Source: an uncultured archaeon (lineage in GTDB: Archaea; Asgardarchaeota; Thorarchaeia; Thorarchaeales; Thorarchaeaceae). Taken from it: DNA of 64,000 nucleotides. A program made the translations under genes and the position numbers. The stretch covers positions 8,832 through 72,831 of the forward strand of contig CAZPWM010000001.1 in assembly GCA_964590575.1 (NCBI GenBank), in the 5' to 3' direction. Below the pieces are notes generated by a model, which was given only the letters and a program-made list of their open reading frames with translations, searched no databases and was not told where the DNA came from. Numbering within the stretch: position 1 is the first letter of the stretch; the number at the start of each line of letters is the position of its first letter. Shown here one piece after another: positions 798-19,196 of this stretch.

Positions 798-2156
798 TTA
801 GATAGGAGCCTTCGAAATAAAGCCTTTCTCGTAAAGCATTTCAGAGGCTCCACGAGCACGTTTTATGATTTTCTCAGCATGTTGGTAGAGGTCTTTCTCT
901 TCCCAATGTTTCTTTGCAATACCCTGCTCAATGGCCTTCATACCAACAGCTGTAGCTTCAGCAGGATATAGCTCCCACTGGTCCATCGTCGGTATGACTT
1001 TACGGACATTAGCTTCTTTCGCACCGAGGTCAGCTAATGCTTGAGCTGCAGCAATACACATCTCATCAGTGATTGTGCTTGCCCTCACATCGAGAGTTCC
1101 GCGGAAGATTCCAGGGAATCCAAGCGAGTTATTGATCTGGTTATCAAAATCTGATCTGCCAGTTCCAACAATTCGAGCTCCTGCATCCTTGGCATCCCAT
1201 GGCCAGATTTCAGGTAGTGGATTCGCACAAGCGTAGACAATCGAGTCGGTTGCCATCGATTCAATCCATTCTTTCTTTACAGTACCCGGTACAGGTCGTG
1301 AAGCAGTGATGAGTACATCCATTCCTTCAATGACTTCGCCCATATCACCAGTATGTCGTTCTGGATTTGTCTTCTGAGCCAAATCATATTTGAAGGTATC
1401 ATAGTCCTTTTCCTTTACGATATCTTCACGGTCCGCATAGATAGCTCCTTGGGTGTCGACCATGATGATGTTCTTTGGATCAACTCCCGCTGCTATCAAC
1501 AAGTATGCTGTACGAGTATTTGCAGCACCGACACCAAGAAATGCTACTTTGATATTCTCGATGTCCTTCTTGACAACATTCAATCCACCGAGTACGCCAG
1601 CTAGAACTACTGTGGCTGTTCCCTGAGCATCGTCATGCCAAACTGGGATTTTGACATCCGGATCGTGTCTCAGTTCCTCTAGAACCTTGTAACATTTTGG
1701 CTTGGAGATATCCTCAAGGTTGATACCACCAAATGAAGGTTGTAGGAGTTTAACAAACTCAATGATTTTATCAGGGTCTTTCGTGTCGACACAAATCGGC
1801 CATGCATCCACACCACCGAGGTACTTGAAGAGAATTGACTTCCCTTCCATAACAGGACCTGCTGCGAGAGGACCGATATCACCTAGACCGAGAACTCGGG
1901 TACCATCGCTTACAACTGCGACCATGTTCCCCTTGTTCAGATGTTCGTACGCCATCTCGGGATTATCTTTGATGTCCAGGCATGGTTTAGCCACACCAGG
2001 AGTATACCAGATTGCGAAGTCTGAGAAATCCCGAACCGGACATTTACCAATACTCATAATCTTGCCTTGGTAAAATGGGTGAAGGACCATAGCGTCCTTC
2101 CCTGGTTTCTCAGCCTTTTTCTTCAACTCTTCGACAGAGAGCTTTTCTTCAGACAT
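798..2156 (-). CDS. NAD(P)-dependent malic enzyme (malate dehydrogenase, oxaloacetate-decarboxylating)
   Basis: 452 aa; typical malic enzyme motifs (GLGDIGPLAAGPVMEGK, FLGVGAANTRTAYLL Rossmann); full-length small-type malic enzyme. Confidence 0.9.
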   Translation of the reverse strand: MSEEKLSVEELKKKAEKPGKDAMVLHPFYQGKIMSIGKCPVRDFSDFAIWYTPGVAKPCLDIKDNPEMAYEHLNKGNMVAVVSDGTRVLGLGDIGPLAAGPVMEGKSILFKYLGGVDAWPICVDTKDPDKIIEFVKLLQPSFGGINLEDISKPKCYKVLEELRHDPDVKIPVWHDDAQGTATVVLAGVLGGLNVVKKDIENIKVAFLGVGAANTRTAYLLIAAGVDPKNIIMVDTQGAIYADREDIVKEKDYDTFKYDLAQKTNPERHTGDMGEVIEGMDVLITASRPVPGTVKKEWIESMATDSIVYACANPLPEIWPWDAKDAGARIVGTGRSDFDNQINNSLGFPGIFRGTLDVRASTITDEMCIAAAQALADLGAKEANVRKVIPTMDQWELYPAEATAVGMKAIEQGIAKKHWEEKDLYQHAEKIIKRARGASEMLYEKGFISKAPI

Positions 2157-2300
2157 AATGTGCGCCTCTTTGTCTTCAATATACGAGCTATACTCACTCG
2201 CGAAGTGAGTTGAAGCTGAAGAAGTTTCGGTTTAAGTGTATCCGTCTGGTGCATTATCACGACAGCAGGAAAACACTCACACAACCGCGAACACATCGTC

Positions 2301-2312
2301 TTATTAATAAAA
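2301..2312 (+). promoter_or_regulatory. TATA-box-like element (TTATTAATAAAA) ~21 nt upstream of ATG 2333
   Basis: AT-rich octamer at archaeal TATA distance from the first conserved Met of the SagB-type gene; implies leaderless or near-leaderless transcript. Confidence 0.4.
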
Positions 2313-2332
2313 CAACAAACCAATGCTGGTTT

Positions 2333-3070
2333 ATGCCCGGAGTTGGTGATGAGTTTCATAGCTCAACAAAGTATGAGAGAGGTAAACTGCCTGGTCACCA
2401 GTTGGACTGGAGCACTAAGCCGTCGGTATACAAAAAGTACCCAGAGGCTGAGAAGATTGATCTCCCTCCGCCAGTGGTACAGGGTGGACCTGGTCTCTGG
2501 GAAATCCTAAGAACTCGAAGAAGCGTCCGTGCTTATACTCGAGATGCCATAAGCATTGAGGATTTATCTCAGATTCTTTGGGCCACACAAGGAATCACAG
2601 ATTCTATTGGCGACCATCACCTTAGAACCGCTCCCTCCGCTGGAGCTCTTTATCCCATAGAGACCTATCTCTTGATCAACCGAGTTGACGGTTTCAAATC
2701 TGGTCTATACCATTATGATGCTGAAACTCATCAACTTGACGTTCTCAAACTTGGTGACTATTCTCGAGAGGTCAGGGCAGGTGCGCTGGACCAACAAATA
2801 GCTGAACGAGCTTCAGTAGTATTCATTTGGAGCGCTATATTCCAGAGGTCTAAATGGAAGTATCTCCAACGAGCATATCGCTACATATTCCTAGATGCTG
2901 CTCATATAGCACAGAATCTTGCCTTAGCAGCTGAAGGTCTTGGTTTGGGAAGTTGCCAGATTGGTGCTATTTATGATGATTATTTGAACGAGCTAATGGG
3001 TTTTGACATCTCTGAAGAGAGTGTAATCTACTTGAGCAGTGTCGGGAAACCAACCAAGACCATTCAGTGA
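2333..3070 (+). CDS. SagB-type dehydrogenase domain / nitroreductase-family protein
   Basis: RTAPSAGALYPIE signature of SagB-type dehydrogenase domain, nitroreductase fold C-terminal region; ORF-track start 2210 has an implausible basic N-extension, ATG 2333 sits behind a TATA-like box. Confidence 0.8.
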   Translation: MPGVGDEFHSSTKYERGKLPGHQLDWSTKPSVYKKYPEAEKIDLPPPVVQGGPGLWEILRTRRSVRAYTRDAISIEDLSQILWATQGITDSIGDHHLRTAPSAGALYPIETYLLINRVDGFKSGLYHYDAETHQLDVLKLGDYSREVRAGALDQQIAERASVVFIWSAIFQRSKWKYLQRAYRYIFLDAAHIAQNLALAAEGLGLGSCQIGAIYDDYLNELMGFDISEESVIYLSSVGKPTKTIQ

Positions 3071-3072
3071 TA

Positions 3073-3543
3073 CTATAGTTTCAGTCCCCAGTAATTCACG
3101 ATTTGTTCAGCATGTTCCCTGGACCTGACTTTGTCTAATCCTTCAGACCCTCCAAAGATGGCTTCTATCTTTCCATCCTCGCTTATCAAGTATGTAATCC
3201 GCTTAACTCCCATTCCGAGGATATCCAGTTTACTATAAGCACCATATAATTTCGCAATTTCAAGGTCTTCATCCATCAAGATATTGAATGGAAGACGGTG
3301 CTTTGCTCTGAACTTTTGATGGAGCTCAGCTGTGCCTCCTGAAACCCCAAAGATTGGAATCCCGGAGCCTTCGAAAAGCTCATAGCTATCTCGAATTGAG
3401 CATGCTTCAGCAGTACATCCTGGAGTGAAGTCTTTAGGATAGAAATAAAGAACCAACTTCTTTCCTCTGTACTCACTCAGTATGAATTTCCTACCTTCGT
3501 CGTCTTCGGTTTCGAAATCTGGAGCTTCTTCGCCTATCTGCAA
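3073..3543 (-). CDS. bcp: Peroxiredoxin, Bcp/PrxQ family (thiol peroxidase)
   Basis: APDF..., FYPKDFTPGCTAEACS peroxidatic Cys motif, 156 aa. Confidence 0.85.
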   Translation of the reverse strand: MQIGEEAPDFETEDDEGRKFILSEYRGKKLVLYFYPKDFTPGCTAEACSIRDSYELFEGSGIPIFGVSGGTAELHQKFRAKHRLPFNILMDEDLEIAKLYGAYSKLDILGMGVKRITYLISEDGKIEAIFGGSEGLDKVRSREHAEQIVNYWGLKL

Positions 3544-3557
3544 TACTACAATACCCC

Positions 3558-4040
3558 CTACAACTTTAGGTTCCAGAATTTGATGACTTGGTCCGCATGT
3601 TCCTTGGTCTTGACCTTCTCGATTCCTTCTGAGCCACCATAAATTCCCTCAATTCTTCCCTTCTCGTCAATTAGGAAGGTTGTTCGTTCAATACCCATGT
3701 ACTCTTTTCCGTACATGCTCTTTTTCTTATAGACATCATAGAGCTTGGCAAGATCAAACTTCTCATCCATCAACAGTGGAAATGGCAGTTCGTTCTTTTC
3801 TTTGAAGCTCTTATGTGACTTCTCAGTGCCGCCCGACACTCCAAATACAGGTATGTCTGATTTCTTAAACACGTCATAGTTGTCACGAATCGAGCACGCT
3901 TCAGCCTGACATCCTGAGGTGTTATCCTTTGGATAGAAGTACAGGAAGACTTTCTTCCCCTTGAAACTACTGAGTTTGATTTTCTCTCCACTCTCTGTTG
4001 TTGTCGTAAAATCTGGTGCTTTATCGCCTATCTTGAGCAA
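3558..4040 (-). CDS. bcp: Peroxiredoxin, Bcp/PrxQ family (tandem paralog)
   Basis: FYPKDNTSGCQAEACS; ~50% identical to adjacent 3073..3543 product. Confidence 0.85.
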   Translation of the reverse strand: MLKIGDKAPDFTTTTESGEKIKLSSFKGKKVFLYFYPKDNTSGCQAEACSIRDNYDVFKKSDIPVFGVSGGTEKSHKSFKEKNELPFPLLMDEKFDLAKLYDVYKKKSMYGKEYMGIERTTFLIDEKGRIEGIYGGSEGIEKVKTKEHADQVIKFWNLKL

Positions 4041-4177
4041 TGAATTCTCATCCCCTTAAAATTAACAATAATTAACATAAATAGTTACATTTCTAATAAT
4101 AAATATTTGCATACTACTATGACCTTTAGCAATCCTTAAAGAGCAAGTAACATGCTGAGCCTATTGACTTAGGCGGA

Positions 4178-5197
4178 GTGAAGATGGCAGATAGCATCAT
4201 AACCTACAAGTCGTTGACAAAGGTCTACGCGACCATATTCATTGGTACGCTTCTTTTCGTAGTGCTAGGTTACTTCGTCGCAGATCTTTTCCTTCCTTCT
4301 ACGACTTGGGATTGGGTTATTGTACTTTTGTTCTTCATCGGGCTACCCGTGTTAGTCGCTAGTTTAGGATTCTACGTGGGATGGATTGGGAAGAAATCTG
4401 CCATTGAATATACAGATCCCACTTGGGACGTTGAACCAGTTCAGATGACGATTGATGATGCCAAGGCACTCGTCAAACGTAACAAACGCCAATATTGGAG
4501 AATGGTTTCTAACAGTAGTTATTGGACATTCTTCATCCCCATTGTGCTACTCCTGTTCATGGCTGGGTTGCCTGTTTACATATTCTTTGAGTCTCCTGAC
4601 CTTGCCGGATTTGACTCATTGATTTTTTCTCTATCCCTCTCCCTTGCATATCTTATCTCTTCAATTGGTGCTCTTCTAGCCACATCAAACGCAGCCACTG
4701 AAGACTTCGACATTCCTCTGGTACGGGAAGCTATTGCCCTTGCCAAAGCTCAAGAAAAAATAGCTGGCTTGTCTCATGTTCGTGTAGTTTTTGACAAAGG
4801 CAAATTAGATGGCTACAATATCTACGAGAGTCCAAGGGTTGTTTCCCGAATCGCTAGTATAGAAAAGGACGCATACATCGAATCATGGGCTGAGGATCTT
4901 CATGCTTTGACACGTGTACTTTGCAGACTTCATGAATCAGATAGCAACCCACAAGTTGTCTGGTGGTGGATATCCAGAGATCGTAATTTCCGCAAGTTTA
5001 TTGGAACGGATGAGAAGGGCTATTATGTCAGACTACCAGTTCACTCCAAAATGAAGAATCCCGGAGTCAAAGATATCGCTGCTGTTTTTAAAAATGCAGT
5101 AGCAATAATCATCTTAGAATGGTTACAAACTCGTGGTGAGAATAAAGATCTCTCTGGTATTCTCAAGGAGCTTGACGCATTTCCTCATGAGGGATAG
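4178..5197 (+). CDS. Membrane protein, 4 TM + C-terminal soluble domain (paralog family member 1)
   Basis: Two hydrophobic hairpins; conserved IEYTDPTWD and QYWR motifs shared with next two genes. Confidence 0.6.
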   Translation: MKMADSIITYKSLTKVYATIFIGTLLFVVLGYFVADLFLPSTTWDWVIVLLFFIGLPVLVASLGFYVGWIGKKSAIEYTDPTWDVEPVQMTIDDAKALVKRNKRQYWRMVSNSSYWTFFIPIVLLLFMAGLPVYIFFESPDLAGFDSLIFSLSLSLAYLISSIGALLATSNAATEDFDIPLVREAIALAKAQEKIAGLSHVRVVFDKGKLDGYNIYESPRVVSRIASIEKDAYIESWAEDLHALTRVLCRLHESDSNPQVVWWWISRDRNFRKFIGTDEKGYYVRLPVHSKMKNPGVKDIAAVFKNAVAIIILEWLQTRGENKDLSGILKELDAFPHEG

Positions 5198-5199
5198 TA

Positions 5200-6126
5200 T
5201 TGACGGAAGGTCCTATCAGAACCGCGTCATTCTTGAACTATCAGATACTAATTTTCATTGTCGTTTTTGTGTGGGCTTTGATGGGTTTCGAAATTGCCCA
5301 ATATCAGCTACTTACTCTGTATGAAACTCCATACACTTGGATTGCTTGGGCTGTCTTTGCCTTAGTGAGTGTTATTCCCGCCATCACAGCTGTCACTTGG
5401 AGAATGAAGGCTCGGGTCAGTTTTATTGAACCAGAATGGGATTTCAGAGAAAGAGAGATTTCTTTGTCCGAGTACGAGCAAATGATGAAGCAGTATCTCA
5501 ACCAGTATCGAAACTTCCTATCATTTGTTGATTCTCGTCTAATTGCTTTAGCTTGCTTCCTCTCTGTATCTGCTGTAGCATTCCCCTTTCTCCTCATGAG
5601 AACCACAATTATTCTAATCGCTGCAACCCCTGTTATCTTCGGTTTTTTCATCCTCATTTTTGGGCTTGTCAATTCCTCAATAATCTTCAAATTCATACCA
5701 AATGAAGCAACTCTTCATTTTCCCGTTGTACCAGAGAAGATTCTACGTCCATCGATTAGAATTATGCAGACAACATCTGGCATTTCATGGGCTGGAGTGA
5801 GTGTGTTGCTGGGTGAGGCGTCTGGCTACTACACGGTTCGTAAACCCACACCTATATCTCGAATTGAAGGCATTGAGAGTGCTGCCAAAATCCATTGCAT
5901 AATTGACGAATTTGGCAATGTTTCAAAAGTCGTTTCTACGCTATCTCTTGATGATTCTGATACATTAAACATTATTAGCGAGGCCTCCGGCGAGATCTCT
6001 CATAAACAGATTACAGAAATAGTGTACAAGACTCTTCAAGCATACATCAAGGCAAGAGGTCCGGATGAGTTCTTGGATGAAGTACTTGAAGAAGTGACAT
6101 CCTTTCTGAAGAGGTTCAATGGCTAA
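5200..6126 (+). CDS. Membrane protein, 4 TM + C-terminal soluble domain (paralog family member 2)
   Basis: Same architecture; FIEPEWDF / QYRNF motifs; 2-nt gap to upstream gene. Confidence 0.6.
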   Translation: MTEGPIRTASFLNYQILIFIVVFVWALMGFEIAQYQLLTLYETPYTWIAWAVFALVSVIPAITAVTWRMKARVSFIEPEWDFREREISLSEYEQMMKQYLNQYRNFLSFVDSRLIALACFLSVSAVAFPFLLMRTTIILIAATPVIFGFFILIFGLVNSSIIFKFIPNEATLHFPVVPEKILRPSIRIMQTTSGISWAGVSVLLGEASGYYTVRKPTPISRIEGIESAAKIHCIIDEFGNVSKVVSTLSLDDSDTLNIISEASGEISHKQITEIVYKTLQAYIKARGPDEFLDEVLEEVTSFLKRFNG

Positions 6127-7168
6127 TGCAACCAACAATTATCGTAGAGCTTATCACTGCTTATGTTCTGATTTTGTTGAGGGAAGGTTTGGATTGAACG
6201 ATGAAGCTATCATTGATTATAGTCGGCAAGGTAAGGTAAACCGAGCGTTCGCAATTCTAGCAGTACTCTTCTCAGTTGTAGGAATTGTGATGAATTATAT
6301 GAACCTCTATGATTTCAACAAATTACTAGTGTTTATTGCTATGCCCACAGTCCTATTCGTTGTATCGCTAGGAATGGGAGGAGGGTCCAAGAAATCTATT
6401 GATTATATCCCTGGTGAATGGGAAAAGAAAAAGACCTGGGTAAGTTTCACCGATTATGATAATATGGTGGAGCAGTATGAGGATGCCTATGGTGAGCTAT
6501 ACTCAAATCCCGGCGATTTCCTGACCTGTTGTTGCTCACTCGTCTTTATTCTCATCTTCGGATTTCTTATACTACTGTCCCAATCGATGAGCATAATTCT
6601 CCTCAATCCATCACTCGACCCAATTATTTTCATTGTTCTTGAATACAGTATAGTTGCTGTGGCAGGTTTTGTTATTGGTTTCCGGATTCCATCAATTGAT
6701 GCACAGGATTTCTTCAAACGACCGATAAAGGGTGATGTATACAATTTCGCAAGATTCCTTGCGGGTGTTCCTGGCATCAGGGCAGGCATGAATGTTGAGC
6801 TGGGGGTTCGGTCAGGGGTTCAAACAATTATGGAATCTGAAGTCAAGGCTTATGTCCAGAACCTTCCTGAAACAGTCCAAATCCAAGTACAGGTTTCGCA
6901 TTCAGGTTTTGCATATCCATATCTTGTAGGTACGGCTTACAAGGGTGGTCGCATAACCCCCCATGAAGACACATTTCGAATTGGGACGAAATATCCAGCC
7001 CATGTTGAGTATTCAATGGATAAGGATGTCATGGTGATAGTAGCTCGTTTTGATATTCCTGAGCGTACAAGCAGTGTCCCTCACATATCGATGAGTGATT
7101 TCAGGGAGCTAGCAGCCTTACTTGCTGCTGAATTGAAGGATTACTATAATCCAAAGGGGTCGACATAG
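6119..7168 (+). CDS. Membrane protein, 4 TM + C-terminal soluble domain (paralog family member 3)
   Basis: Same architecture; IDYIPGEWE / QYEDAY motifs; start overlaps upstream stop by 8 nt. Confidence 0.6.
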   Translation: MANATNNYRRAYHCLCSDFVEGRFGLNDEAIIDYSRQGKVNRAFAILAVLFSVVGIVMNYMNLYDFNKLLVFIAMPTVLFVVSLGMGGGSKKSIDYIPGEWEKKKTWVSFTDYDNMVEQYEDAYGELYSNPGDFLTCCCSLVFILIFGFLILLSQSMSIILLNPSLDPIIFIVLEYSIVAVAGFVIGFRIPSIDAQDFFKRPIKGDVYNFARFLAGVPGIRAGMNVELGVRSGVQTIMESEVKAYVQNLPETVQIQVQVSHSGFAYPYLVGTAYKGGRITPHEDTFRIGTKYPAHVEYSMDKDVMVIVARFDIPERTSSVPHISMSDFRELAALLAAELKDYYNPKGST

Positions 7169-7234
7169 ACACCTTTAATTATGCGATTTTCAGGCTGAGG
7201 GCGTGTCTAGAGCATGCTAGGAAGTGGGTATTGA

Positions 7235-7528
7235 ATGGCTTCAGGTAATTGGACAAACAAATGGGTTCTGATTCTGATTCTTGGGATACTGATTCAATTG
7301 ATTATCTACCCAGCTGTTTGGGTCTTTCAGCTCTTCACTCATGATTACTTCCCTGATGTTGTTCTAATTTCGCTAATCTCAATAGTCATTCAGATTGGTG
7401 GTTTCTACACCATAATGAACAAGACCCAAGGAATGGATCCCGCAATCTATAGCCAAGGTCGGCCATTTCAGCACAAACTCCGTGAGGAGGATGAGGATGT
7501 GGCAACACGAAAACCAACCTTTGATTAA
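7235..7528 (+). CDS. Small membrane protein (2 TM)
   Basis: 97 aa, two hydrophobic helices, in-operon position. Confidence 0.45.
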   Translation: MASGNWTNKWVLILILGILIQLIIYPAVWVFQLFTHDYFPDVVLISLISIVIQIGGFYTIMNKTQGMDPAIYSQGRPFQHKLREEDEDVATRKPTFD

Positions 7529-7530
7529 TA

Positions 7531-8394
7531 TTGGAGCGGAATAACGTGGAAGAACAAACCAATGAACCAGGTCCTGTAATGAAGTTTGTCCAAGACTATC
7601 GATTAAAGATGTTGATACCTGAACTACTAGTTGTGTTCGGGGTTTGGTATTTCCTCCCGATTCTAGATTCTTCGTTCAGTCCTATGGCTGGTAATGTGTA
7701 TCAGAACTTTGGATTATTCCAGTACATCTTTCAACCATTGTTCTTCCTTCCTTCAGGATTGGTAGTTCTAGCAACTGCTTTCACACTTCATGGCATTTAT
7801 CCACTTGATAACTATCACGAAGGTAAGATTCCTGAGCTTCCCAGAGCTGCAGTTATCATGATTGCACTCTCGTTTATCTTACTACCCGTTCTTGTAGCAT
7901 TCCAGATGCTTGGATACTACATGACCGAGATGACTGAGTTCATCAGCAGGAACCCACTCTGGGAGCGAGTAGAGAGTGTTGGAGACCTTCTGTTCTATGC
8001 AGGTCCGATGTTCTTCGTTGGTCTCCAATGGTGGCTCTTGATTCCAGTGTTTTTCCTTGCACAGGGAGTTGATGGAATTCACAAGATTGCGCACCATGAA
8101 ACATCAAGTGAGAAAATTACTTGGATCTTCTATTTCCTATGGCCTATGTCAATGCCATTCTTTTTCGATTCTGTTGAGATAATGGCGATGGTTGCATTGT
8201 CTATTCCTGCCTTTGCATTCTATTCCTACATTAGACCTTACTACACGTACGTGACCTCAATACACACAGTATCGTTTGCAGTGCTACTCAGCTTGGCAGT
8301 GATTCTGGTGCCATTCTTACCATTGATGAACTTCTGGTTCCCGGGATTCATTCCGCCACACATCCCTCCACGTGCCATACCGTGGCCTTTCTGA
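7531..8394 (+). CDS. Polytopic integral membrane protein (about 7 TM)
   Basis: 287 aa, multiple hydrophobic segments, 2-nt gap from upstream gene. Confidence 0.55.
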   Translation: MERNNVEEQTNEPGPVMKFVQDYRLKMLIPELLVVFGVWYFLPILDSSFSPMAGNVYQNFGLFQYIFQPLFFLPSGLVVLATAFTLHGIYPLDNYHEGKIPELPRAAVIMIALSFILLPVLVAFQMLGYYMTEMTEFISRNPLWERVESVGDLLFYAGPMFFVGLQWWLLIPVFFLAQGVDGIHKIAHHETSSEKITWIFYFLWPMSMPFFFDSVEIMAMVALSIPAFAFYSYIRPYYTYVTSIHTVSFAVLLSLAVILVPFLPLMNFWFPGFIPPHIPPRAIPWPF

Positions 8395-8418
8395 CATAGT
8401 TGAGAATGTGTCTAGCAA

Positions 8419-9456
8419 TTACCTTGAGGATTCAAGAGTCTGCAAGAAGATCTCTTGGAATTTAGAACTCTCCTCATGAATCTTTCTTGAGAGTTCTGGA
8501 CTTGCACCTGAGAGACCACATTGTGTGGATACCATCGTGTTCCTTTCCACTAGGTCCAAGTCAACACCACTTTCTTTCAACAACCGAAAACTCTGTTTCA
8601 GATTAATTGAAAGGGTTTCTAGAATCGATTTCGAGTACGAGTTATCAACATTAGGTAGTGCACCAAGGGCAAGCCCGCCCCCATGCTTCATGAACTCATT
8701 CATTTTCTTTGCCTGTTCCTGCTTAACTTCCGGAGGATATCGGACCAAATCAATATGTGCAAGTTTTGGTTTGCTTTCCCAAAGAGGATACCATCCATCG
8801 AAATTCAATATGCGCCAATCATCACAATAATGGAAAGCTGGGATAACACTCTTAGGATAGACACTATCTGTTTTGTTAATTATTTCTTTCAGAGTGAGTC
8901 CTGGTACAAGTCCTTGATTGATCATCTCAAACACGTGTCCCAAGCTTGGGTCATCTTGGCAAAGAATTAGTGAGTCACAGAACTTGCTTAGGTATTCGAC
9001 CTGACCGATCGCAATCCGTTTCATCAGTCTATGAAAGAAATAGAACATATTCTGAGTAATATGCTGTTTGCCGCTACTATCTCTAATAGTATAGCACATC
9101 GTGGCTGGTGCTGTCTGTTGCGTTTTAAAGATAGGATACATTGTTCCATCCATCATTAAATAGTGACTATGTCCGTGTTCTTTATCCAGCATCAGTGGTC
9201 CATCGTTACTTACCATCTCCCGATATGTATGAATGTCGACATCGAGAACGAAGTTCCCCTTTTCTTCAAATTCCTCCACCAAGACCGCAAACTGTCTTAT
9301 CATATCCTCTTCACGTAAGGCTGTTATACTGTACGAATATGGAAGATTCAATTTCTTCACATAATCAACAGGTATTGATGGATTTGGTTCACCTAGACTA
9401 CCCACTCCAAAGAACTGACCTGCCAAATCTTTTGGAAGGCAACTTTCCAGTTTCAA
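8419..9456 (-). CDS. Hypothetical protein, possibly cobalamin-independent methionine-synthase (MetE C-terminal)/URO-D-like fold
   Basis: 345 aa; C-terminal ...VSTQCGLSGASPEL resembles MetE-like zinc-site region; weak. Confidence 0.45.
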   Translation of the reverse strand: MKLESCLPKDLAGQFFGVGSLGEPNPSIPVDYVKKLNLPYSYSITALREEDMIRQFAVLVEEFEEKGNFVLDVDIHTYREMVSNDGPLMLDKEHGHSHYLMMDGTMYPIFKTQQTAPATMCYTIRDSSGKQHITQNMFYFFHRLMKRIAIGQVEYLSKFCDSLILCQDDPSLGHVFEMINQGLVPGLTLKEIINKTDSVYPKSVIPAFHYCDDWRILNFDGWYPLWESKPKLAHIDLVRYPPEVKQEQAKKMNEFMKHGGGLALGALPNVDNSYSKSILETLSINLKQSFRLLKESGVDLDLVERNTMVSTQCGLSGASPELSRKIHEESSKFQEIFLQTLESSR

Positions 9457-11177
9457 TCACCTCTTTTTGCTTGGCTACGTCGTCGAATGACCTTGTTGCA
9501 TGATTGAACCGCTGGGCAACCTTTACAAAGTTCAGGAACATCTTCGATAACCTGGTCCTCTCCGTAAATTAAGAACTGATCAGCAATCGAAGATTCCGCA
9601 GAAACCATCGCCTCCTCGTTTTGGCTTTTTTTCCGAACCATACATTTGTGCTTGCGAAGATTTTCACTTAGCTCAACCGAATTGCCAGATACTACGACCG
9701 CTGTTGGTCCAACTTTTCTGACAATCTGTTTCGTGAAATCTGGAATCATCATTAATGTTTCAAGGTCCTGCTCACTCTCAGTTTCAAAAAGGGTGACTTC
9801 GGATATTGTAGTGAAGGTGGTTTGAGATGTCCAATCTGTAATAGATCTAACTACATTTCTGGGAACTGGTTTACTGCTCTCTTTCTCTAGGAAGCCAAGG
9901 ATGTCATCTTCACGCAGTCCAATCTCAATCGCCTCGAAGATTGATTTATCTGAAATTTTGAACGTGCTCACTACATCTGTACGAATTGGTTCTGTCAAGA
10001 GCATTAAACGGTAAAGTTTCTGGTATTCCATTTCACTGGTGAATACAGTGAGCTCGAAGTTTGGCAACACAAAGAATGATTCTCGCATCTCAGGCTTTTC
10101 GAACGGTGTCCCCAGGAGAACGTTTTCACCAACATCTGTCAATCTAACTGCGAGAAGTTTCTTGCCACGATATGCTGCTTCAACCAATCCCAGAAGTATT
10201 GGCGTTTCAAGAGATAATTGAACTCTATCCTCGTCGACCTGAATCCATTTCAATGATTGATTCTCTATGAACAATTCACTCCTAATCCAATCCCTGAGTT
10301 CTTCAATACTGATCCAGTCTTCAGACGTACTTTCTCGAAGTCTACAAATTGCCAGATTGAGCGTGTATTCTGTAGGTTGATCAGGGGTGGCCCAGATTGC
10401 TCTTGTTCTGCCAAGTTGGGACAATAGCAGTCTACGAGCTACATTGCGATGCTCTCCTGCAAATAGAATATCTATTTTGGATGGCTGGACTTTATCTCCT
10501 TCTCCTACAGTGTAAGCTCCCATTTTGCGCGCCATCTTTTGGACTAGTTCAAATCGCTCATCGGTTTTCTTAGACATAGGTTCTTTGATGTAGTCGATTT
10601 CTCTTCTGGGAAACTCCCAGGCACTTGTGAGGTGGACCTCTCGTTTTGCTATATGTGATACAAGCAGGAGCATATCTATAATCAAAGTGTCTCGTTCATT
10701 TACGATGTCTTTGACTTTCTTTGGCTTCTCTGGTTGGGGTTGAGGTTTTGTTTCAAATAGGTCCCTTAGATGGGGGATAAAGAACTCTAGGACCTTGAAC
10801 TCTGCAACCTCTCGTCCAAATTCTGTTAATCGTGACATCATTTGTCTGATGATGATACCCTTTTTCCGAAGGTCTCTCTCCGTTTGATTCAGTTGCCCAT
10901 AACTATAGATCTTTCTGAAAGGCTTGAGTCGGTCATAGCTCATAGCTCCCCCACTAAGTGTTAAGAGTCCCAGCAGATCTTTCTCGAGTTGAGAGAATGT
11001 GGCAAATATTCTTTCCCTCTCTTCTGGCATCCTCATTTTCTCTGCGAGCATTTTGATAAGCGATGATCCAGTGTCTTTTCCTGTCACGTCAATGGACCAA
11101 TACTGACATGCAAAGAGTAAGTCTTCTCTGAGGACATGTTCAAGTTCTTTCTCTAGGGATTCTTTTGCCATTATCAT
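9453..11177 (-). CDS. Large hypothetical protein (574 aa), cytoplasmic, C-terminal CxxC...C cluster
   Basis: Long ORF, overlaps downstream gene by 4 nt (operon); no recognisable catalytic motif. Confidence 0.55.
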   Translation of the reverse strand: MIMAKESLEKELEHVLREDLLFACQYWSIDVTGKDTGSSLIKMLAEKMRMPEERERIFATFSQLEKDLLGLLTLSGGAMSYDRLKPFRKIYSYGQLNQTERDLRKKGIIIRQMMSRLTEFGREVAEFKVLEFFIPHLRDLFETKPQPQPEKPKKVKDIVNERDTLIIDMLLLVSHIAKREVHLTSAWEFPRREIDYIKEPMSKKTDERFELVQKMARKMGAYTVGEGDKVQPSKIDILFAGEHRNVARRLLLSQLGRTRAIWATPDQPTEYTLNLAICRLRESTSEDWISIEELRDWIRSELFIENQSLKWIQVDEDRVQLSLETPILLGLVEAAYRGKKLLAVRLTDVGENVLLGTPFEKPEMRESFFVLPNFELTVFTSEMEYQKLYRLMLLTEPIRTDVVSTFKISDKSIFEAIEIGLREDDILGFLEKESSKPVPRNVVRSITDWTSQTTFTTISEVTLFETESEQDLETLMMIPDFTKQIVRKVGPTAVVVSGNSVELSENLRKHKCMVRKKSQNEEAMVSAESSIADQFLIYGEDQVIEDVPELCKGCPAVQSCNKVIRRRSQAKRGD

Positions 11178-11337
11178 TACCGACCACGAAATTGTCAGTT
11201 GGAAACAAGCGCCCAGCTTTTGAGCATTTAAGGAGCTTTTGGTTTTGTCATTTTTTCAACTGATGAAGGTTAGTAGCTCTATTGAAAAAAGAAACAAGCT
11301 TATCTTCACATGATATGACTCGATTCTGGGTGTAATA

Positions 11338-12450
11338 TTGGAACCTGTCCTTTGGAGTGTCAAATATAGGCCTAAAGCTTGGAATGATTTCGTTGGCAAA
11401 GAAAATACAATTAATCAATTGAAATCACTCGTGGAATCCAGTATTTTCACAAACATGATTTTCTATGGGCCCTCTGGAACAGGAAAGACGGCTGCGGCGG
11501 AACTCTACTCAAAGGAGATACTTGGCGATAGCTTTGGTGCCAACTTCAAAATTCTGAACATCCGTGATGTCTGGGATATTCCGGTTAGTAAAGCCAAACG
11601 TTCAGTGCAGGACCTGGCAAAACTTGGTCGTGAGCAGAGGTCCGAATTAGATGAGTATATCTCCGTTGTCTTTCGTGAAGCAAAGACTGAACGAAAAGCT
11701 CGAGGTCGTTCAGGAGACCCTACCAGACGTGAATTACTATTAGAAGCAATTCGATTTTTTGCATCAACCGCAACTGTTGCTGATGAGAAGATCAAAATAT
11801 TAGTCTTAGACGAAGCAGACGCTATGACTTTGAGTATGCAACAGGCACTTCGAAGAACTATGGAGCTATTCAGTGACACCTGTCGATTCATACTCATCAC
11901 TCCTTCTCTTTCAGGATGGAGTCCGGCAATCATCTCAAGGTCTCTAACCTTACACTTTCAAAATCCTCCCCCTGAAGTTGTACAAAAACTAATTGCTGAA
12001 ATTGCTTCAAAAGAAAACGTAATGATAGATGATTCCGCTGTGACAGCAATTGCAAGGGAATCAAGAGGGGATTTGAGACGCGCAATTAATTTACTTCAAA
12101 TTGCTGCTGCTGCAAGTGATTCAGTGACTGAAGATATTGTGTACGAATATTCTGAAACTCAACTAACTACCAGAGCGCGAGATATCGTTACTCTTGCAAT
12201 AAACGGTCAATACGAACCCGCAAGAAAAGAAATTCGAAATCTGATAGCTATTGACGATTACTCACCTCAAGAAGTATGTCTAGAGATCGAACGAGATCTT
12301 GTGAAGCGCCCGTTTGCGCCTGAAGTACTTAGCAAGGTTCTTGATAGAGTTGCAGAGATCGACTATCGTCTCCTACAAGGGAAGAACGCTTTCGTTCATT
12401 TGGCTGCATTATTAGCATCGCTCCGAGCAATAGCTGCTGAGGCCGCCTAA
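11338..12450 (+). CDS. rfcS: Replication factor C small subunit (clamp loader ATPase)
   Basis: WSVKYRPKAWNDFVG, GPSGTGKT Walker A, LVLDEAD Walker B, SRS (SRC-motif position); TTG start inferred; ~45-aa insertion between Walker A and B. Confidence 0.85.
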   Translation: MEPVLWSVKYRPKAWNDFVGKENTINQLKSLVESSIFTNMIFYGPSGTGKTAAAELYSKEILGDSFGANFKILNIRDVWDIPVSKAKRSVQDLAKLGREQRSELDEYISVVFREAKTERKARGRSGDPTRRELLLEAIRFFASTATVADEKIKILVLDEADAMTLSMQQALRRTMELFSDTCRFILITPSLSGWSPAIISRSLTLHFQNPPPEVVQKLIAEIASKENVMIDDSAVTAIARESRGDLRRAINLLQIAAAASDSVTEDIVYEYSETQLTTRARDIVTLAINGQYEPARKEIRNLIAIDDYSPQEVCLEIERDLVKRPFAPEVLSKVLDRVAEIDYRLLQGKNAFVHLAALLASLRAIAAEAA

Positions 12451-12755
12451 AACATCGGATCAATTTCACTACTAATGCTAATCTTGTCATTTAATGCAGA
12501 AGCCAGATTAGGAGCGAGATATTGACGATCGAATAGGAACTCTGCCTTGAGTAAGTCTTCAGATCTGGCTATCATTCCGTTGTCTATCGCCATTGTAAGT
12601 AATCTTCTCACTTGACTTGGTTTGCCATATCGACATCTAAAAGAAATGAATTCGACTGCGTCCTCAACTCGAACCGGATCTCCTTTCTTTCTGAAAAGGT
12701 GCGAGAGAATGAGAAGGAGATCTTTCCCGTTCATATTTTGGGTGGCTCCCGACAC
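12447..12755 (-). CDS. Hypothetical small protein (possible winged-helix fold)
   Basis: 102-aa ORF convergent with rfcS; no motif; would not overlap the kinase if that starts at 12790. Confidence 0.35.
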   Translation of the reverse strand: MSGATQNMNGKDLLLILSHLFRKKGDPVRVEDAVEFISFRCRYGKPSQVRRLLTMAIDNGMIARSEDLLKAEFLFDRQYLAPNLASALNDKISISSEIDPMF

Positions 12756-12789
12756 CCTTTTAGAAGTTGCTGTGTTAGGGAAGAGAGAG

Positions 12790-13752
12790 ATGACAAAACG
12801 ACAACTTACGAGGATTCATGGTCATTCTATACAGGAATTAGAACGCATGGTGCATGATGCATGTAATCTGTTTGATGAGGCGGTGTCGTTAGAGCGTAAA
12901 AATCTTGGTGGATGGTCAAATATCAATATCCGTGGTCACGCCTCAGGAATTGACTTTGTCTTGAAGCTACCTTGGTCTATTTCTACTCACAAAACTGATT
13001 CTTACAAACACCTCTATGACATAAGTATGTATTTCAATAAACTAGATCTTGCTGCTTTTCCACTTTCAATGGGTCACCTCTCTGATACTATGAGCACTCC
13101 CTATATCCTCTTTGAGTACGTCGACGGTGTTGTTCATGATTCTCTCACTGAATTTACAGCTCAAGAATTGTTCTCCCTTAAAACCTGTCTTCAACTCCTG
13201 ACACAACAAAAACCTCCCGGACTCAGTCGATACAAGTCCCCCTCAGACCACCTGACCACAAACTATGCTCTTGTTGAAAATCATGAGGGCCTTTCGATTG
13301 CTTCGCAAGACCTGACTCAACTTATTGACACATTCAATGATTTTTACCCTGAGATTCTATCATTCACTGATTCTCTGGGTTCATGGGGTCCATCGATAAT
13401 GCATGGTGACTTGTGGATTCCTAACATTGTCTTCAAATCTGGACACATTACTCTACTTGATTTTGAAGCCTGTGCATACGGAAATCCGCTTTTTGATTTA
13501 GCCTACCTTCTTGAAACGCCTGTCAGCACCTCTATAGACAAAATTCATGGATTGGTAAGTCTTGAAGATGCGGATGAAGTCAATAGCCTTAGACCACTCG
13601 TAGTTGCATTTCTAGTTAGCTGGTCTCTGGAACGACTCTTGTCAATGGAGTCTGGTTTAGTAGAACCAAATCTAGATACTCTCGAGAACAGGTCTGCTCT
13701 TATTGATTACACCCTTTCCAAAATGACTCGGTTAAAGACACTCCTCTCCTAG
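12790..13752 (+). CDS. Aminoglycoside/choline-kinase-like phosphotransferase (APH fold)
   Basis: HGDLWIPNIVF (catalytic loop HGDxxxxN) and LLDFEAC (DFE/DFG-equivalent); start trimmed from ORF-track 12622 to first Met after non-protein-like extension. Confidence 0.65.
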   Translation: MTKRQLTRIHGHSIQELERMVHDACNLFDEAVSLERKNLGGWSNINIRGHASGIDFVLKLPWSISTHKTDSYKHLYDISMYFNKLDLAAFPLSMGHLSDTMSTPYILFEYVDGVVHDSLTEFTAQELFSLKTCLQLLTQQKPPGLSRYKSPSDHLTTNYALVENHEGLSIASQDLTQLIDTFNDFYPEILSFTDSLGSWGPSIMHGDLWIPNIVFKSGHITLLDFEACAYGNPLFDLAYLLETPVSTSIDKIHGLVSLEDADEVNSLRPLVVAFLVSWSLERLLSMESGLVEPNLDTLENRSALIDYTLSKMTRLKTLLS

Positions 13753-15455
13753 GTGAAGAAACTCTCGGGAGGTTTCTCCCATATCTTCTCATCTACTGAA
13801 GCAATCACATATTGGTATCCTTGCTCAGTGAGGAAAAGTTGACGCTTGGCAGCGAAGTCCATATCGCGCGTGTCTTTTGTGATAAGTGAGTAGAAACGTG
13901 CAAAGCTACCATCAGTTTTAGGTCGAAGAATTCTACCTAACCGCTGAGCTTCCTCCTGACGTGACCCAAAAGTTCCTGAGACCTGAATAGCCACGTTAGC
14001 ATCCGGGAGGTCAAGGGCGAAGTTTGCTACCTTGGACACAATCAGCAACTTTTCAGTTCCCTCTCTGAAAGCTTCATAGAGACGTTGTCTTTCATCATTG
14101 TGGGTCTTCCCAGTAATCAGGGGTGCCCCAACCTCATCAGCTATCAATTTCAATTGGTCAAGATACATTCCGATGACGAGGATGTTATCATCTTGATGAT
14201 ATTCGATGAGCTTCTTGATTATTTCGAGTTTCACTGGGTTCTCTGCTGCAATTCTGTACTTCTTCCTGTCCTCAGCAACCGCATACATTCTTCTCATATT
14301 ATCTGGAAGGTCAAGTCTGATCTCATAGCAAATTGCTGTGGCAATCCAGCCTTGATCCTCTAGTTGTTTCCAAGGCATGTCAAACCGTTTAGGTCCAATT
14401 AAGCTGAACACATCTTCCTCTTTCTCATCCTCGCGGACTAGAGTTGCTGTCAATCCTAACCTTCTGGTTGCTTGGATTGTTGCAGTGACTCGAAATACTG
14501 GTGCTGGAAGAAGATGAACCTCATCGTAGATAATGAGTCCCCAGTTTCTCGCTTCGAATATCTTGAAATGAGGGAACTTGTCCTCTCGTGACTTCCGCCA
14601 AGTGAGGATTTGATACGTAGCAACGGTGACCGGACGAATCTCTTTGCTATCTCCAGTATATTCTCCAATATCCTCCGGTCGTAGTGTTGTTTTATCAAGA
14701 AGTTCTGTGATCCATTGTCTGACTGCTACGACATTAGGGCATAGGATGATGGTTGAGGTCTGTAGTTTGTACATGGCTCCGATGCCCACCATTGTCTTTC
14801 CTGCTCCACATGGTAGGACAACGACTCCCGAACCACCTCTTTCTCCACCACCTGCATGAAAAATAGCAACAGCATCTTCCTGATAGTGCCTAAGACCCCA
14901 CGTTTTTCCCTCGAGAGTTTTTTCGCGAATCTCAAAGGGCAGATGTTCTCCCTCTACGTAACCAGCAATGTCTTCGACCGGGTGTCCAATCTCTATTAGT
15001 GCATGTTTTAGAAAACCTCGTTGTGCAGGGTCAACGCGCATGGTGACCGCATCAGTTCTCTCGATGAGGTACTCTCTGACCTTTTTATTCGCCCATATCT
15101 CCTCTGCGAGGTCCTCATCTTCACATAGGAGAAGAATGTCGGGACCTTCCTTATACAGCGAGATTTGACCATATCTGGACATATAATCGACAATCTCTCT
15201 GGCAATGTTGCCGGGGATTGGATACTTCGCGAATTTTTCCAGCGCAGCAATCACCTCCTTTGGTGACATCCCCATCGCCGCAGCATTCCACAGACTCAGA
15301 GGTGTGACTCGGTATGTATGTACATACTCTGGACTTTTGACTAGCTCTGCAAAACGTGCCAAGGAATCACGCGCATTCTCATACAAAGGATTGTCTACTT
15401 CTAGAAGAACCGATTTATCAGATTGTACTATGAGTGGATTGCTTGGATTTGCCAT
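13749..15455 (-). CDS. xpb: XPB/ERCC3 (Rad25/Ssl2)-type SF2 DNA helicase with N-terminal damage-recognition-like domain
   Basis: LRHYQEDAV, GGSGVVVLPCGAGKTMVG (motif I), IYDEVH (DEVH box), LGLTATLVREDEKE (RED motif), thumb insertion; high similarity to eukaryotic XPB core. Confidence 0.9.
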   Translation of the reverse strand: MANPSNPLIVQSDKSVLLEVDNPLYENARDSLARFAELVKSPEYVHTYRVTPLSLWNAAAMGMSPKEVIAALEKFAKYPIPGNIAREIVDYMSRYGQISLYKEGPDILLLCEDEDLAEEIWANKKVREYLIERTDAVTMRVDPAQRGFLKHALIEIGHPVEDIAGYVEGEHLPFEIREKTLEGKTWGLRHYQEDAVAIFHAGGGERGGSGVVVLPCGAGKTMVGIGAMYKLQTSTIILCPNVVAVRQWITELLDKTTLRPEDIGEYTGDSKEIRPVTVATYQILTWRKSREDKFPHFKIFEARNWGLIIYDEVHLLPAPVFRVTATIQATRRLGLTATLVREDEKEEDVFSLIGPKRFDMPWKQLEDQGWIATAICYEIRLDLPDNMRRMYAVAEDRKKYRIAAENPVKLEIIKKLIEYHQDDNILVIGMYLDQLKLIADEVGAPLITGKTHNDERQRLYEAFREGTEKLLIVSKVANFALDLPDANVAIQVSGTFGSRQEEAQRLGRILRPKTDGSFARFYSLITKDTRDMDFAAKRQLFLTEQGYQYVIASVDEKIWEKPPESFFT

Positions 15456-16028
15456 ATTTTTTCATCATCCAGATACACATCGTTGCTTGAGTAAATGTCC
15501 TATCTGCACACGGAAAGCGTGAAACGGCGGAATTTTGTGGAGATAAACCCTTCGTTGTGACTTCTCGCTGTGACCGTAACGCCTATATACTTCTGACTCC
15601 GAGCCCGCTGTAATTGGTTAACGGAGGTGCAATGAAAAAATGATTGTAATTAGACTTGATACTGTAGTATATACCTGCACCAACGTTGAGAACGCCTAAC
15701 TGGCTTTCATTGCTTCTTTGTGCTTGTCCATCCATTCTACACATCGTGTATGGATTTTCATTGAAGCACGACGTTTGTTGTGGGTCTAGACTTCTCGAGG
15801 TTTGATGTGCTATTAACGTAAGATGTGTGTCGCTCAGCCGATGAGAGTGAACCCAAAGTTGTATACTAACAATCACAAAGAGAATTTTTCGCTAAACACA
15901 AAAAATGCGAACCTAGAATGCAAAAGTTTGGATACACAGAGTCCAAAGAAACGACATGCTCCCCTCTTGGACAGCATTCCTGGGATAAAGCATGGATGTA
16001 GACTCTCCACAAATGAGGTGGCCTAAAG

Positions 16029-16829
16029 ATGTCACCCGTAGTAGTAGAGAAGCTAAATCCTCGGAAACCCAGTGCGCTCTCTCTGAAGAGAGATGTTCAG
16101 AGAGGAAACAAGAGAGGATGGACGGTTGCGATCAATGAGATTAATCTAGACGAAGTCAGGGATGATGCTGTGAAATTCGGGCTTGCTACCGAAGTTCTCT
16201 ATCAGATGAATGCTGGCAAGGAAGCATCGATTTACTTAGCGAACTGGAAAGACTTTCCACTCGTACTGAAAGCCTATAGATTCTGGCAGTCTGCTCAAGC
16301 GAAAAGGAGTAAGGGGTTCTTTGCTCCAGGAAGGATGCAGGCAATTGCAGCACAGGAGTACGGCCTATTACTGGCTTGTTTCAAAGCAGGAATGAATGTT
16401 CCCACTCCTGTTTCTCGCGTCGGCAACTATCTTACAATGAGATACATCGGCGACGATATAGATCCTGCGCCTCAACTTAGGAATGTCCAACTCGAAGAAC
16501 CTGAACTTGTGTTGGATGAGATACTCGATGACTACCTAATTATGTACCGTGATGTTCACTACGTCCATGGAGACCTTAGTGCTTACAATATATTGTGGTG
16601 GCAAGGTAGAGCATGGATTATCGATCTCCCTCAAGCGTATCAGGTTGGTCCCTGGGCTGACATGAAGAGGGTTGTGACTCTCCTACGTCGTGACATTGTG
16701 AACCTGCTTCAGTATTTCAAGAAATACGGAATCAGACGAGACCCTGATGAGATCGTCAAAGTATTCCTCTCAGAATATGTTCCTCACAATCTTAGGAACT
16801 ACAATGAGACCGTAGCTGGGGGCGCCTGA
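16029..16829 (+). CDS. RIO-type serine/threonine protein kinase
   Basis: GKEASIYLA (P-loop-like), VLKAYR, HGDLSAYNILWW catalytic loop, IDLPQA metal-binding loop. Confidence 0.85.
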   Translation: MSPVVVEKLNPRKPSALSLKRDVQRGNKRGWTVAINEINLDEVRDDAVKFGLATEVLYQMNAGKEASIYLANWKDFPLVLKAYRFWQSAQAKRSKGFFAPGRMQAIAAQEYGLLLACFKAGMNVPTPVSRVGNYLTMRYIGDDIDPAPQLRNVQLEEPELVLDEILDDYLIMYRDVHYVHGDLSAYNILWWQGRAWIIDLPQAYQVGPWADMKRVVTLLRRDIVNLLQYFKKYGIRRDPDEIVKVFLSEYVPHNLRNYNETVAGGA

Positions 16830-17666
16830 ATGAGTCGAGTAGACAAGTTCAATCCCCTGGCTAAGGGTAGTGTTATCGATCAGAAAAGAGATGCTTTGAG
16901 GGGTGGTACTAGTGGTAAAGCTGAAATTGGGGAACCAAAGTTTGAGGAGATTCGACGTGAAGCAATCACCTATGGACTGGCTACAGATGTACTCTATCCC
17001 ATAAGTTCTGGAAAAGAAGCCTCAATATTTCTTGCCCTGTGGAAGAATCATCCAATCGTTCTAAAAGCCTACAGACTCTGGGCCACTCCTCATAAATTGT
17101 CTATGACAAAGGGTCACATTAGAGAGTCCAGTGGTAAGAAGACTCGGTGGATACTTGGCTTGATTGAAGACATTGCAGTAGCAGAGTTCGATGTACTTCA
17201 AAACTGCTTCAATGCAGGTGTAAGAATTCCTACTCCAATCTCGCGGGTGGCTAACTACTTGACCATGAGGTTCATTGGAGATGTAGAAACCCCTGCTCCC
17301 CAACTTAGAGAGGTGCAGCTGGAGGCTCCAGAGCATGTTCTGAACGAAGTCTTCGACCAGTACCTGAAGATGTATCGCGATGCTCACTATGTGCATGGAG
17401 ATCTTAGTGCATACAACATCCTTTGGTGGCAAGACAAGCCCTGGATCATTGATGTTCCGCAGAGTGAAACAGTGAACAAATGGTCAGACATGAATAAGGT
17501 TGAGTTAATTCTTCGTCGTGACATTCACAATGTTCTCAAATATTTCGAGAGTTATGGAATAGAACGCGACCCTGAACATATTCTCAATGTGTTTCTTGAT
17601 GCATATATTCCTGACAACTTGAGAAACTATAAGGAGCTACGGAATGAAGGTATGGAGCTCTTGTAG
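16830..17666 (+). CDS. RIO-type serine/threonine protein kinase (tandem paralog)
   Basis: GKEASIFLA, VLKAYR, HGDLSAYNILWW, IDVPQS; start 1 nt after upstream stop. Confidence 0.85.
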   Translation: MSRVDKFNPLAKGSVIDQKRDALRGGTSGKAEIGEPKFEEIRREAITYGLATDVLYPISSGKEASIFLALWKNHPIVLKAYRLWATPHKLSMTKGHIRESSGKKTRWILGLIEDIAVAEFDVLQNCFNAGVRIPTPISRVANYLTMRFIGDVETPAPQLREVQLEAPEHVLNEVFDQYLKMYRDAHYVHGDLSAYNILWWQDKPWIIDVPQSETVNKWSDMNKVELILRRDIHNVLKYFESYGIERDPEHILNVFLDAYIPDNLRNYKELRNEGMELL

Positions 17667-18482: not shown

Positions 18483-19196
18483 GTGCATCCCCGTCTACTA
18501 CAACTTGTAGGAATCATTTTAGTAATTGTTACACTTGCGATGACCTTCATTGTCTACCAAAGCACAATGATGATAGAAGGTCAAGAGTTCTTCACGATGA
18601 TTGCTTCAGGAATGATTGCTTGGGCTATTGTTGCATTACCTGAATTAGTACTTGGCTTATGGCTGATTGCCAAAGGAACGCGTGAGGCTCGTATTGGAGA
18701 TGTATCAGGAGACCTCATTCCCCTTGTACAGAAAGAAGGTCGTATCAGTGTGGATGATGCTGCCAGACAACTTGCTGTTGAACCACAGGTTGTCGCTGAC
18801 GCAGCAGAGAAACTAGCTAAGCGTCGACTGCCACTTGTATACCTAGATCGACGAGCTCATGAGATTGTGAGTCCGAAAGCTGTATCGTTGAAGGAGAGTC
18901 TGTTACATCTTCTCTATGCACAGCGACGAATGACTTTTGACCAAATACAAAAAGTAACCGAGTCAACTGATGAGCAGATAGTGGATGCCTTGAAGGAGTT
19001 GTCAAAACAGGGCAAGTTCAGAGGAGTAATTGATGAGAACTCGAGGGTGGTATACACTCAGGAAGCAGTATCTCAACTTCCTAAAGCAGTGACTGTTTGT
19101 CCTAACTGTGACGGAAAGTTGGAAGCTCCAATTCTACCAGGTGAGGAAGAATTCTGTCCATATTGTGGACATGCTATCGTGAACAGACTGAAGTGA
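18483..19196 (+). CDS. Membrane-anchored hypothetical protein with C-terminal zinc ribbon
   Basis: 2 N-terminal TM helices; C-terminal CPNCDG...CPYCGH. Confidence 0.5.
   Translation: MHPRLLQLVGIILVIVTLAMTFIVYQSTMMIEGQEFFTMIASGMIAWAIVALPELVLGLWLIAKGTREARIGDVSGDLIPLVQKEGRISVDDAARQLAVEPQVVADAAEKLAKRRLPLVYLDRRAHEIVSPKAVSLKESLLHLLYAQRRMTFDQIQKVTESTDEQIVDALKELSKQGKFRGVIDENSRVVYTQEAVSQLPKAVTVCPNCDGKLEAPILPGEEEFCPYCGHAIVNRLK

Follow-up and report, generated by a model that had tools for sequence, protein, structure and literature searches.

What do five adjacent genes for membrane proteins of no recognized family encode, and do they form a single system? The question is raised by positions 4178–8394 of a 64,000-nt stretch of contig CAZPWM010000001.1 from an uncultured thorarchaeal archaeon (the window, by which we mean this whole stretch), where genes g1 to g5 follow one another on the + strand. 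A sequence-only reading had taken them for one operon and a candidate novel system. From a comparison with 36 related loci (L001–L036), found by scanning one genome per GTDB species, we arrive at a tentative answer, to which we assign a probability of about 0.4: the five genes belong to two adjacent units, of which the first (g1–g3) would encode a hetero-oligomeric, membrane-anchored module and the second (g4/g5) would include, in g5, an intramembrane metallo-enzyme with a UbiA-like fold.

The first gene, g1 (4178–5197, 339 aa, GTG start), is followed after 2 nt by g2 (5200–6126, 308 aa), and the longest open reading frame (ORF) of g3 runs from 6119 to 7168 (349 aa). Since most g3 orthologs are 319–326 aa long and begin at the position equivalent to a TTG codon at 6194, this TTG is most likely the start; by this alignment of starts, g3 is probably a 324-aa protein beginning 67 nt downstream of g2. 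The spacing first described, with 2-nt gaps or overlaps between neighbors and 66 nt before g4 (7235–7528, 97 aa, ATG start), agrees with the coordinates of the five + strand ORFs as called, and only the g2–g3 overlap vanishes with the probable start. The last gene, g5, occupies 7531–8394 (287 aa). The ratio of nonsynonymous to synonymous substitution rates (dN/dS) against the closest relatives is 0.04–0.14 for all five genes, an approximate range with dS near saturation, and we therefore regard g1–g5 as real coding genes under purifying selection. The 64-kb window contains no tRNA and no Rfam family.

On the evidence of their sequences, g1, g2 and g3 are true, distant paralogs. BLASTP aligns g1 with g2 (E = 2e-10), g1 with g3 (9e-6) and g2 with g3 (9e-7) at 22–23% identity across most of their length, bearing out the proposed tandem triplication. 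That proposal had been made dependent on two loop motifs being kept in orthologs: the first, I(E/D)Y..W, holds throughout an alignment of 42 sequences from the three orthogroups and is a true family signature, and the second, Q-Y-x3-Y, is conserved in only ~70%. In the same alignment Lys72, Trp83 and Phe177 (g1 numbering) are invariant and Ala173 is nearly so; all four are located at the membrane–cytoplasm boundary in the g1 model. Each locus carries one copy per paralog, giving 1:1:1 orthogroups. The most conserved of the three is g3, with 69 invariant positions among 27 sequences, and the fastest-evolving is g2, with 10 among 32, a shorter C-terminal domain and no counterpart of the ~26-residue WWW...GYYV insert of g1. 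Beyond these shared positions, the C-terminal domain, predicted to be cytoplasmic, holds numerous other charged and aromatic residues that are invariant within g1 or within g3.

Hydropathy assigns four transmembrane (TM) segments to each of g1–g3, two to g4 and at least six to g5. The AlphaFold model of g1 reaches a predicted local distance difference test score (pLDDT) of 90.5 and a predicted TM-score of 0.80 from only 32 sequences. In this model an N-terminal strand precedes four TM helices (residues 14–38, 46–73, 115–137 and 145–168), the TM2–TM3 loop is formed by a beta-hairpin (76–78, 85–90) and a helix (92–105), and the C-terminal alpha/beta domain of ~170 residues comprises one helix, six strands, including the long hairpin 198–225, and two C-terminal helices. 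The topology proposed earlier, two TM hairpins with a loop between them and a soluble domain behind, thus finds its match in hydropathy for g1–g3 and in the model for g1. The N-terminus of g1 and the loop spanning residues 71–112 are rich in lysine and arginine, from which, by the positive-inside rule, we infer that the N-terminus, the TM2–TM3 loop and the C-terminal domain of the modeled protein face the cytoplasm. The external loops of the model are only ~7 residues long. Outer loops so short, together with conserved soluble parts predicted on the inside, argue against a role at the cell surface or in variable specificity. The suggestion of a variable-specificity family is further opposed by the single-copy 1:1:1 orthologs, by purifying selection and by the absence of any defense signal, and such a family, like one at the cell surface, is essentially excluded.

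The family stands outside every known family and solved fold that we tested, and g1–g3 represent a new protein family. Neither Pfam nor NCBIfam gives a match at the curated threshold for any of g1–g5, whether searched singly or across 32–42 family members, and no PDB sequence is matched at E < 0.1 by the family profiles of g1, g3 or g5. PADLOC and PHROGs yield no significant match; with these empty searches and a collinear housekeeping context, we reject a role in anti-phage defense and a viral origin. Compared as a whole chain with the PDB by Foldseek, the g1 model has no fold match (best E 0.31), and it is on this scale, the whole chain against the PDB, that its predicted fold is without a known counterpart. 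Among the five proteins and their neighbors, matches below threshold to MFS_1, DUF6057, DUF6814 and DUF2207_C are noise from TM segments. We also consider a match of the g3 N-terminal hairpin to SPC12/SPCS1 (PF06645) to be noise: five of 28 g3 members show it (best E 8e-4), the g3 protein of the window has no PF06645 match, and the g3 profile does not retrieve SPCS1 from the PDB sequences. The sequence-only reading had recognized no transporter, secretion or sensor family and had named confident homology to a characterized family as the finding that would lessen the interest of the locus; the profile searches reveal no such homology for any of g1–g5. Of the candidate novel system, the family itself is borne out as novel.

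How widely is the family distributed? A sequence search with g1 returns 108 proteins, all hypothetical and none with a Pfam domain; the names among them are those of Thorarchaeota, Sifarchaeia or "Promethearchaeota" metagenome-assembled genomes, and 35 of the 36 related loci carry the same labels. The remaining locus, L027 (JBHLLF010000002.1), is labeled Candidatus Hermodarchaeota; its arrangement is near-identical to that of the Thorarchaeota contig L026, with similar identities, and the label may be a taxonomic misassignment. An exhaustive search of 1.84 billion representative proteins with a profile hidden Markov model (HMM) of the three paralog groups gives 116 matches at E ≤ 1e-3. All but two of these sort cleanly into three orthogroups (g1, 36; g2, 56; g3, 24), the outliers being a spurious protein of 1201 aa and a marginal one of 350 aa, and the most divergent named members are again from Thorarchaeota. 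The triplication is therefore old and predates the sampled radiation. Apart from the two outliers, neither the word-indexed searches nor the exhaustive HMM search found relatives outside Thorarchaeota. Similarly, the 120 listed matches of g5 are all from Thorarchaeota and at least 69% identical. Judged from these searches, the g1–g3 family appears to be confined to the Thorarchaeota lineage.

The division into two units follows from the intergenic regions. Throughout the lineage the order g1–g2–g3 is retained, with little space between the genes and one promoter-like element in front of them; g2 and g3 are close together or overlap in the orthologous loci. In the window this element, AGCAATCCTTAAAGAGC (4128–4144, + strand), resembles a B recognition element and TATA box (BRE/TATA) and lies ~34 nt upstream of the g1 GTG; it recurs before g1, sometimes slightly altered (e.g., to GCTTAAAGAG or CTCTTAAGGAG), in 29 of the 34 loci with a displayed upstream region, and its function would be that of a promoter. 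A second conserved BRE/TATA-like element, ACACCTTTAATTA (7169–7181, + strand), follows the g3 stop codon immediately, with 54 nt between it and the g4 ATG, and is kept wherever g4 is on the + strand (28 of 28 loci, the most divergent ones included), so that transcription of g4 probably starts separately. The motif class shared by AGCAATCCTTAAAGAGC and ACACCTTTAATTA is rare, with five matches in 64 kb, four of which precede genes of this region: g1, g4 (an overlapping pair) and the downstream d574. A specific operator common to these three genes was considered and rejected, as the shared CCTTAAA/CCTTTAA core and the A-rich part upstream of it look like a generic BRE/TATA.

The orientation of g5 provides a further boundary. 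Of 29 loci long enough to include g5, 13 have it in the same direction as g4; in the other 16 it is encoded on the opposite strand, and each of these 16 inverted copies has its own conserved upstream GATAnnCTTAAG element; in L021, g4 and g5 are inverted together. On the other side of the locus, the spacer between g1 and the divergent tandem pair of Bcp/AhpC-TSA peroxiredoxin paralogs (3073–3543 and 3558–4040, − strand), once proposed as a shared promoter, holds two separate elements: AGCAATCCTTAAAGAGC on the g1 side and, adjoining the bcp1 start, ATTAACAATAATTAAC (4061–4076), an ATTAA-N6-TTAAT inverted repeat that is conserved in most loci and could serve either as an operator or as the TATA region of bcp1. 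These sequence patterns would be read best as an operon of g1–g2–g3 followed, in this genome, by a second unit made of g4 (and g5); in half of the lineage, g5 would stand on its own. The single five-gene operon first proposed is thereby reduced to its g1–g3 part, which is co-directional and conserved in arrangement; g4 and g5 would lie outside it. We note that both bcp queries match identical coordinates in several loci (e.g., L006, L011, L013 and L021), which thus appear to have a single bcp gene.

The two proteins of the second unit are highly conserved. Across 30 sequences of the 2-TM protein g4, 30 positions show no variation, and most of them belong to the charged C-terminal tail GRPFQHKLREEDE..RKPTF, which is predicted to be cytoplasmic. 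In g5, 114 of the 287 positions are invariant in 30 sequences, and the invariant polar motifs are clustered at helix ends: L86-HGIYPLDNYHEGKI-100, E145/R146/E148/D152, D181-GIHK-A-HHET-191 and R235-PYYTYV. First described as a 7-TM protein, g5 is instead modeled with ~9–10 helices. Its predicted polytopic, all-alpha fold resembles the isoprenoid synthases of the UbiA superfamily, the solved structures that compare with it being the archaeal DGGGP synthase 6m31 (score 10.3), AfUbiA 4tq3 (10.1), DPPR synthase 8j8j (9.8), ApUbiA 4od4 (9.3) and UBIAD1 8djm (8.1).

Taken together, these features suggest how the two units might work. A three-gene operon would supply three ancient paralogs, each a four-helix TM bundle, that may assemble as a g1–g2–g3 hetero-oligomer in which the bundle serves as anchor and the cytoplasmic domains do the work, the g1 and g3 domains through invariant surfaces specific to each subfamily. 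The second unit would consist of the small g4, with two TM helices and an invariant charged tail predicted on the cytoplasmic side, and g5, whose invariant His, Asp and Glu clusters at the helix ends are predicted to lie at the cytoplasmic membrane interface. There, g5 could act as a metal-dependent enzyme on a lipid or an isoprenoid-linked substrate, with a non-canonical, histidine-rich site taking the part of the Asp-rich motifs; an intramembrane enzyme of this metal-dependent kind would be the most economical interpretation. The two units may, in addition, cooperate.

Several observations weigh against this proposal. Members of the UbiA superfamily carry two Asp-rich motifs, NDxxDxxxD and DxxxD, that bind Mg2+ and diphosphate. 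No Asp-rich box is conserved in g5, where PLDNYHEGK (P91–99) and DGIHKIAHHE (D181–190) stand instead; no UbiA (PF01040) match is found in 32 members at E ≤ 10; and hhalign against E. coli UbiA, MenA and CyoE gives a probability of 0.7% (E 0.079). By sequence, then, assignment of g5 to UbiA fails. As to the internal pseudo-twofold repeat of the superfamily, in which either half bears one motif, hhalign of the N-terminal with the C-terminal half of g5 yields no significant alignment (probability <5%, E 0.01–0.06); the best one, residues 58–86 with 148–176, does set the two motif-bearing helices in register. The confidence of the g5 model is only moderate (pLDDT 74.8). As modeled, g5 resembles the UbiA fold and is not a demonstrable member of the superfamily. 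For the first unit, the difficulty is gene loss at the locus. L012, L019 and L031 (complete chromosome CP070761.1) have no g3, and L036 has no g2; the g2–g4 spacers retain deletion scars of g3, codons of its N- and/or C-terminal part, in L012 (3243–3426 of that locus), with the remnants RIGLSDKSIIDYSRQG and DFRNLAGLLASELNDNHNPP followed by a stop, and in L019 (5174–5316), with FANILAKELKKNYNEAQ followed by a stop. A strict 1:1:1 complex is not obligatory, and a multi-subunit complex of g1–g3, although possible, is weakened by these losses.

The last difficulty concerns the neighborhood as a whole. All long loci have the same order over ~20 kb: malic enzyme, nitroreductase, bcp, bcp, g1–g5, d345, d574, RFC, an APH-type kinase, XPB and RIO. 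In the window this region spans 798–17,666 and ends with a canonical XPB and two tandem RIO kinases, and its collinearity persists despite protein divergence down to 24–40% for some genes. Because the whole ~20 kb is collinear across the lineage, the adjacency of any of its genes, including that to bcp, is weak evidence for a common function and carries little functional information. The strongest competing explanation builds on this point: the five genes would be unrelated neighbors in a slowly rearranging region, with g1–g3 independent of one another, for example as anchors for different cytoplasmic partners, and with g4 and g5 in roles of their own. The very unequal rates of the five genes fit such independence (ortholog identity across loci is 67–89% for g5, 45–82% for g3, 34–80% for g1 and 23–72% for g2), as do the loss of individual paralogs and the separate invariant surfaces of the g1 and g3 cytoplasmic domains. 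Against it stands the lineage-wide retention of g1–g2–g3 order, tight packing and single promoter-like element, and ancient paralogs kept in tandem are often subunits of hetero-oligomers. We consider it a real contender, if an improbable one.

Somewhat less probable still is that all five proteins form one membrane complex from one operon. The genes are co-directional and tightly spaced in the window, they are adjacent in every sufficiently long locus save for the lineage-specific losses of g2 or g3, and the conserved soluble parts are all predicted on the cytoplasmic side. The promoter-like element that splits g4 from g3 in 28 of 28 loci, however, speaks against one transcript, as do the 16 of 29 loci in which g5 is inverted with its own element and the inversion of g4 in L021; nor does adjacency distinguish the five genes from the unrelated housekeeping genes of the ~20-kb flanks, which are equally collinear, and four lineages lack g2 or g3 at the locus.

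A transporter or channel with g1–g3 as permease subunits is highly improbable. The proteins have multiple TM segments, and there are weak matches in these regions to MFS_1 and similar families. The best of them, to MFS_1 (E 0.0028), scores 17.1 bits where the cut-off is 33.4; the 42 members share no consistent match, and no known transporter family (ABC-2, MFS or others) is matched by g1–g3 above the Pfam or NCBIfam cut-off. Least probable of all is a membrane module for oxidative stress under common regulation with the divergent peroxiredoxins and the nitroreductase. In its favor are the divergent arrangement, which places the genes beside a nitroreductase and two bcp genes in almost every locus, and the many invariant histidines of g5; against it are the separate conserved elements on the bcp1 and g1 sides, the lack of CxxC or other redox motifs in g1–g5 and the membership of the neighborhood in the general collinear block.

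Returning to the two-unit proposal, a bolder version of it, which we regard as a long shot, would join g1–g3, whose cytoplasmic domain would be a new fold, to g4 and the non-canonical, His-rich, UbiA-fold g5 in a Thorarchaeota-specific machine that works at the cytoplasmic face, where it makes or remodels a membrane lipid or an isoprenoid. If true, this would bring a new class of enzyme into Asgard membrane biology. Eukaryotes have no closer known relatives than the Asgard archaea, to which Thorarchaeota belong, and experiments have hardly touched the membrane biology of Thorarchaeota. Even g5 by itself, if confirmed, would extend the catalytic repertoire of the UbiA fold to a different metal-binding chemistry and could bear on Asgard lipid metabolism. 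The g1–g3 family, being lineage-wide, absent elsewhere among 1.84 billion representative proteins and endowed with a confident model that has no solved counterpart, lends itself well to structural and functional study.

The flanking genes offer a few observations of their own. Between g5 and d574 is d345 (8419–9456, − strand, 345 aa), which has no Pfam or NCBIfam match. Of the 28 loci that extend to d574, 10 (e.g., L009, L011, L015, L026, L027, L030–L032 and L035) have no tblastn match to it, and in L013 only a fragment of ~30 codons matches; d345 is therefore dispensable or fast-evolving. Next to it, d574 (9453–11,177, − strand, 574 aa) has a single recognized domain, of the XPB N-terminal type (Helicase_C_3, E 1e-10), is 58–86% identical in all loci and is divergent to the RFC small-subunit gene (11,338–12,450). 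An Asgard "TFIIH-like/ERCC3-like" family that adjoins RFC small-subunit genes, fam18955, is described by Méheust et al. 2022 (PMC9258230), and d574, which fits it, probably belongs to it. Beyond the collinear region, a 237-aa protein with a C-terminal zinc ribbon (18,483–19,196, + strand) has a sub-threshold DDRGK match (E 2.6e-4, 21 bits against 27.8) and adjoins an ARPP-1 domain protein (19,201–20,019, − strand); it could be of interest as a eukaryote-like feature, the match being weak.

How do g1–g5 compare with known systems? Like reticulon/REEP-type proteins, g1–g3 have, in topology, two hydrophobic hairpins, a cytoplasmic loop of ~40 residues between them and both termini in the cytoplasm. 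Unlike the wedge hairpins of those proteins, the four helices of the g1 model are full-length (23–28 residues), bundled and joined to a folded domain of ~170 residues; with this model, and with no Pfam match to reticulon or TB2/DP1, we reject a reticulon-like hairpin. The likeness of g5 to the UbiA superfamily is confined to the predicted fold and the location of the conserved charged clusters, and the number of helices between its two motifs has no obvious match there. On a broader scale, blocks of archaeal families that are lineage-specific and well conserved consist, according to Méheust et al. 2022 (PMC9258230), mostly of proteins with no predicted function and are enriched in TM helices, and hypothetical lineage-specific membrane families are, by that account, common in archaea. 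Because such families are common, we rate the significance of the locus as moderate. By that description, g1–g5 fit these lineage-specific hypothetical families, and none of the five is named in the searchable text and supplements of that study. What the present analysis adds to it is the tandem architecture of three paralogs and a confident predicted fold without a match in the PDB.

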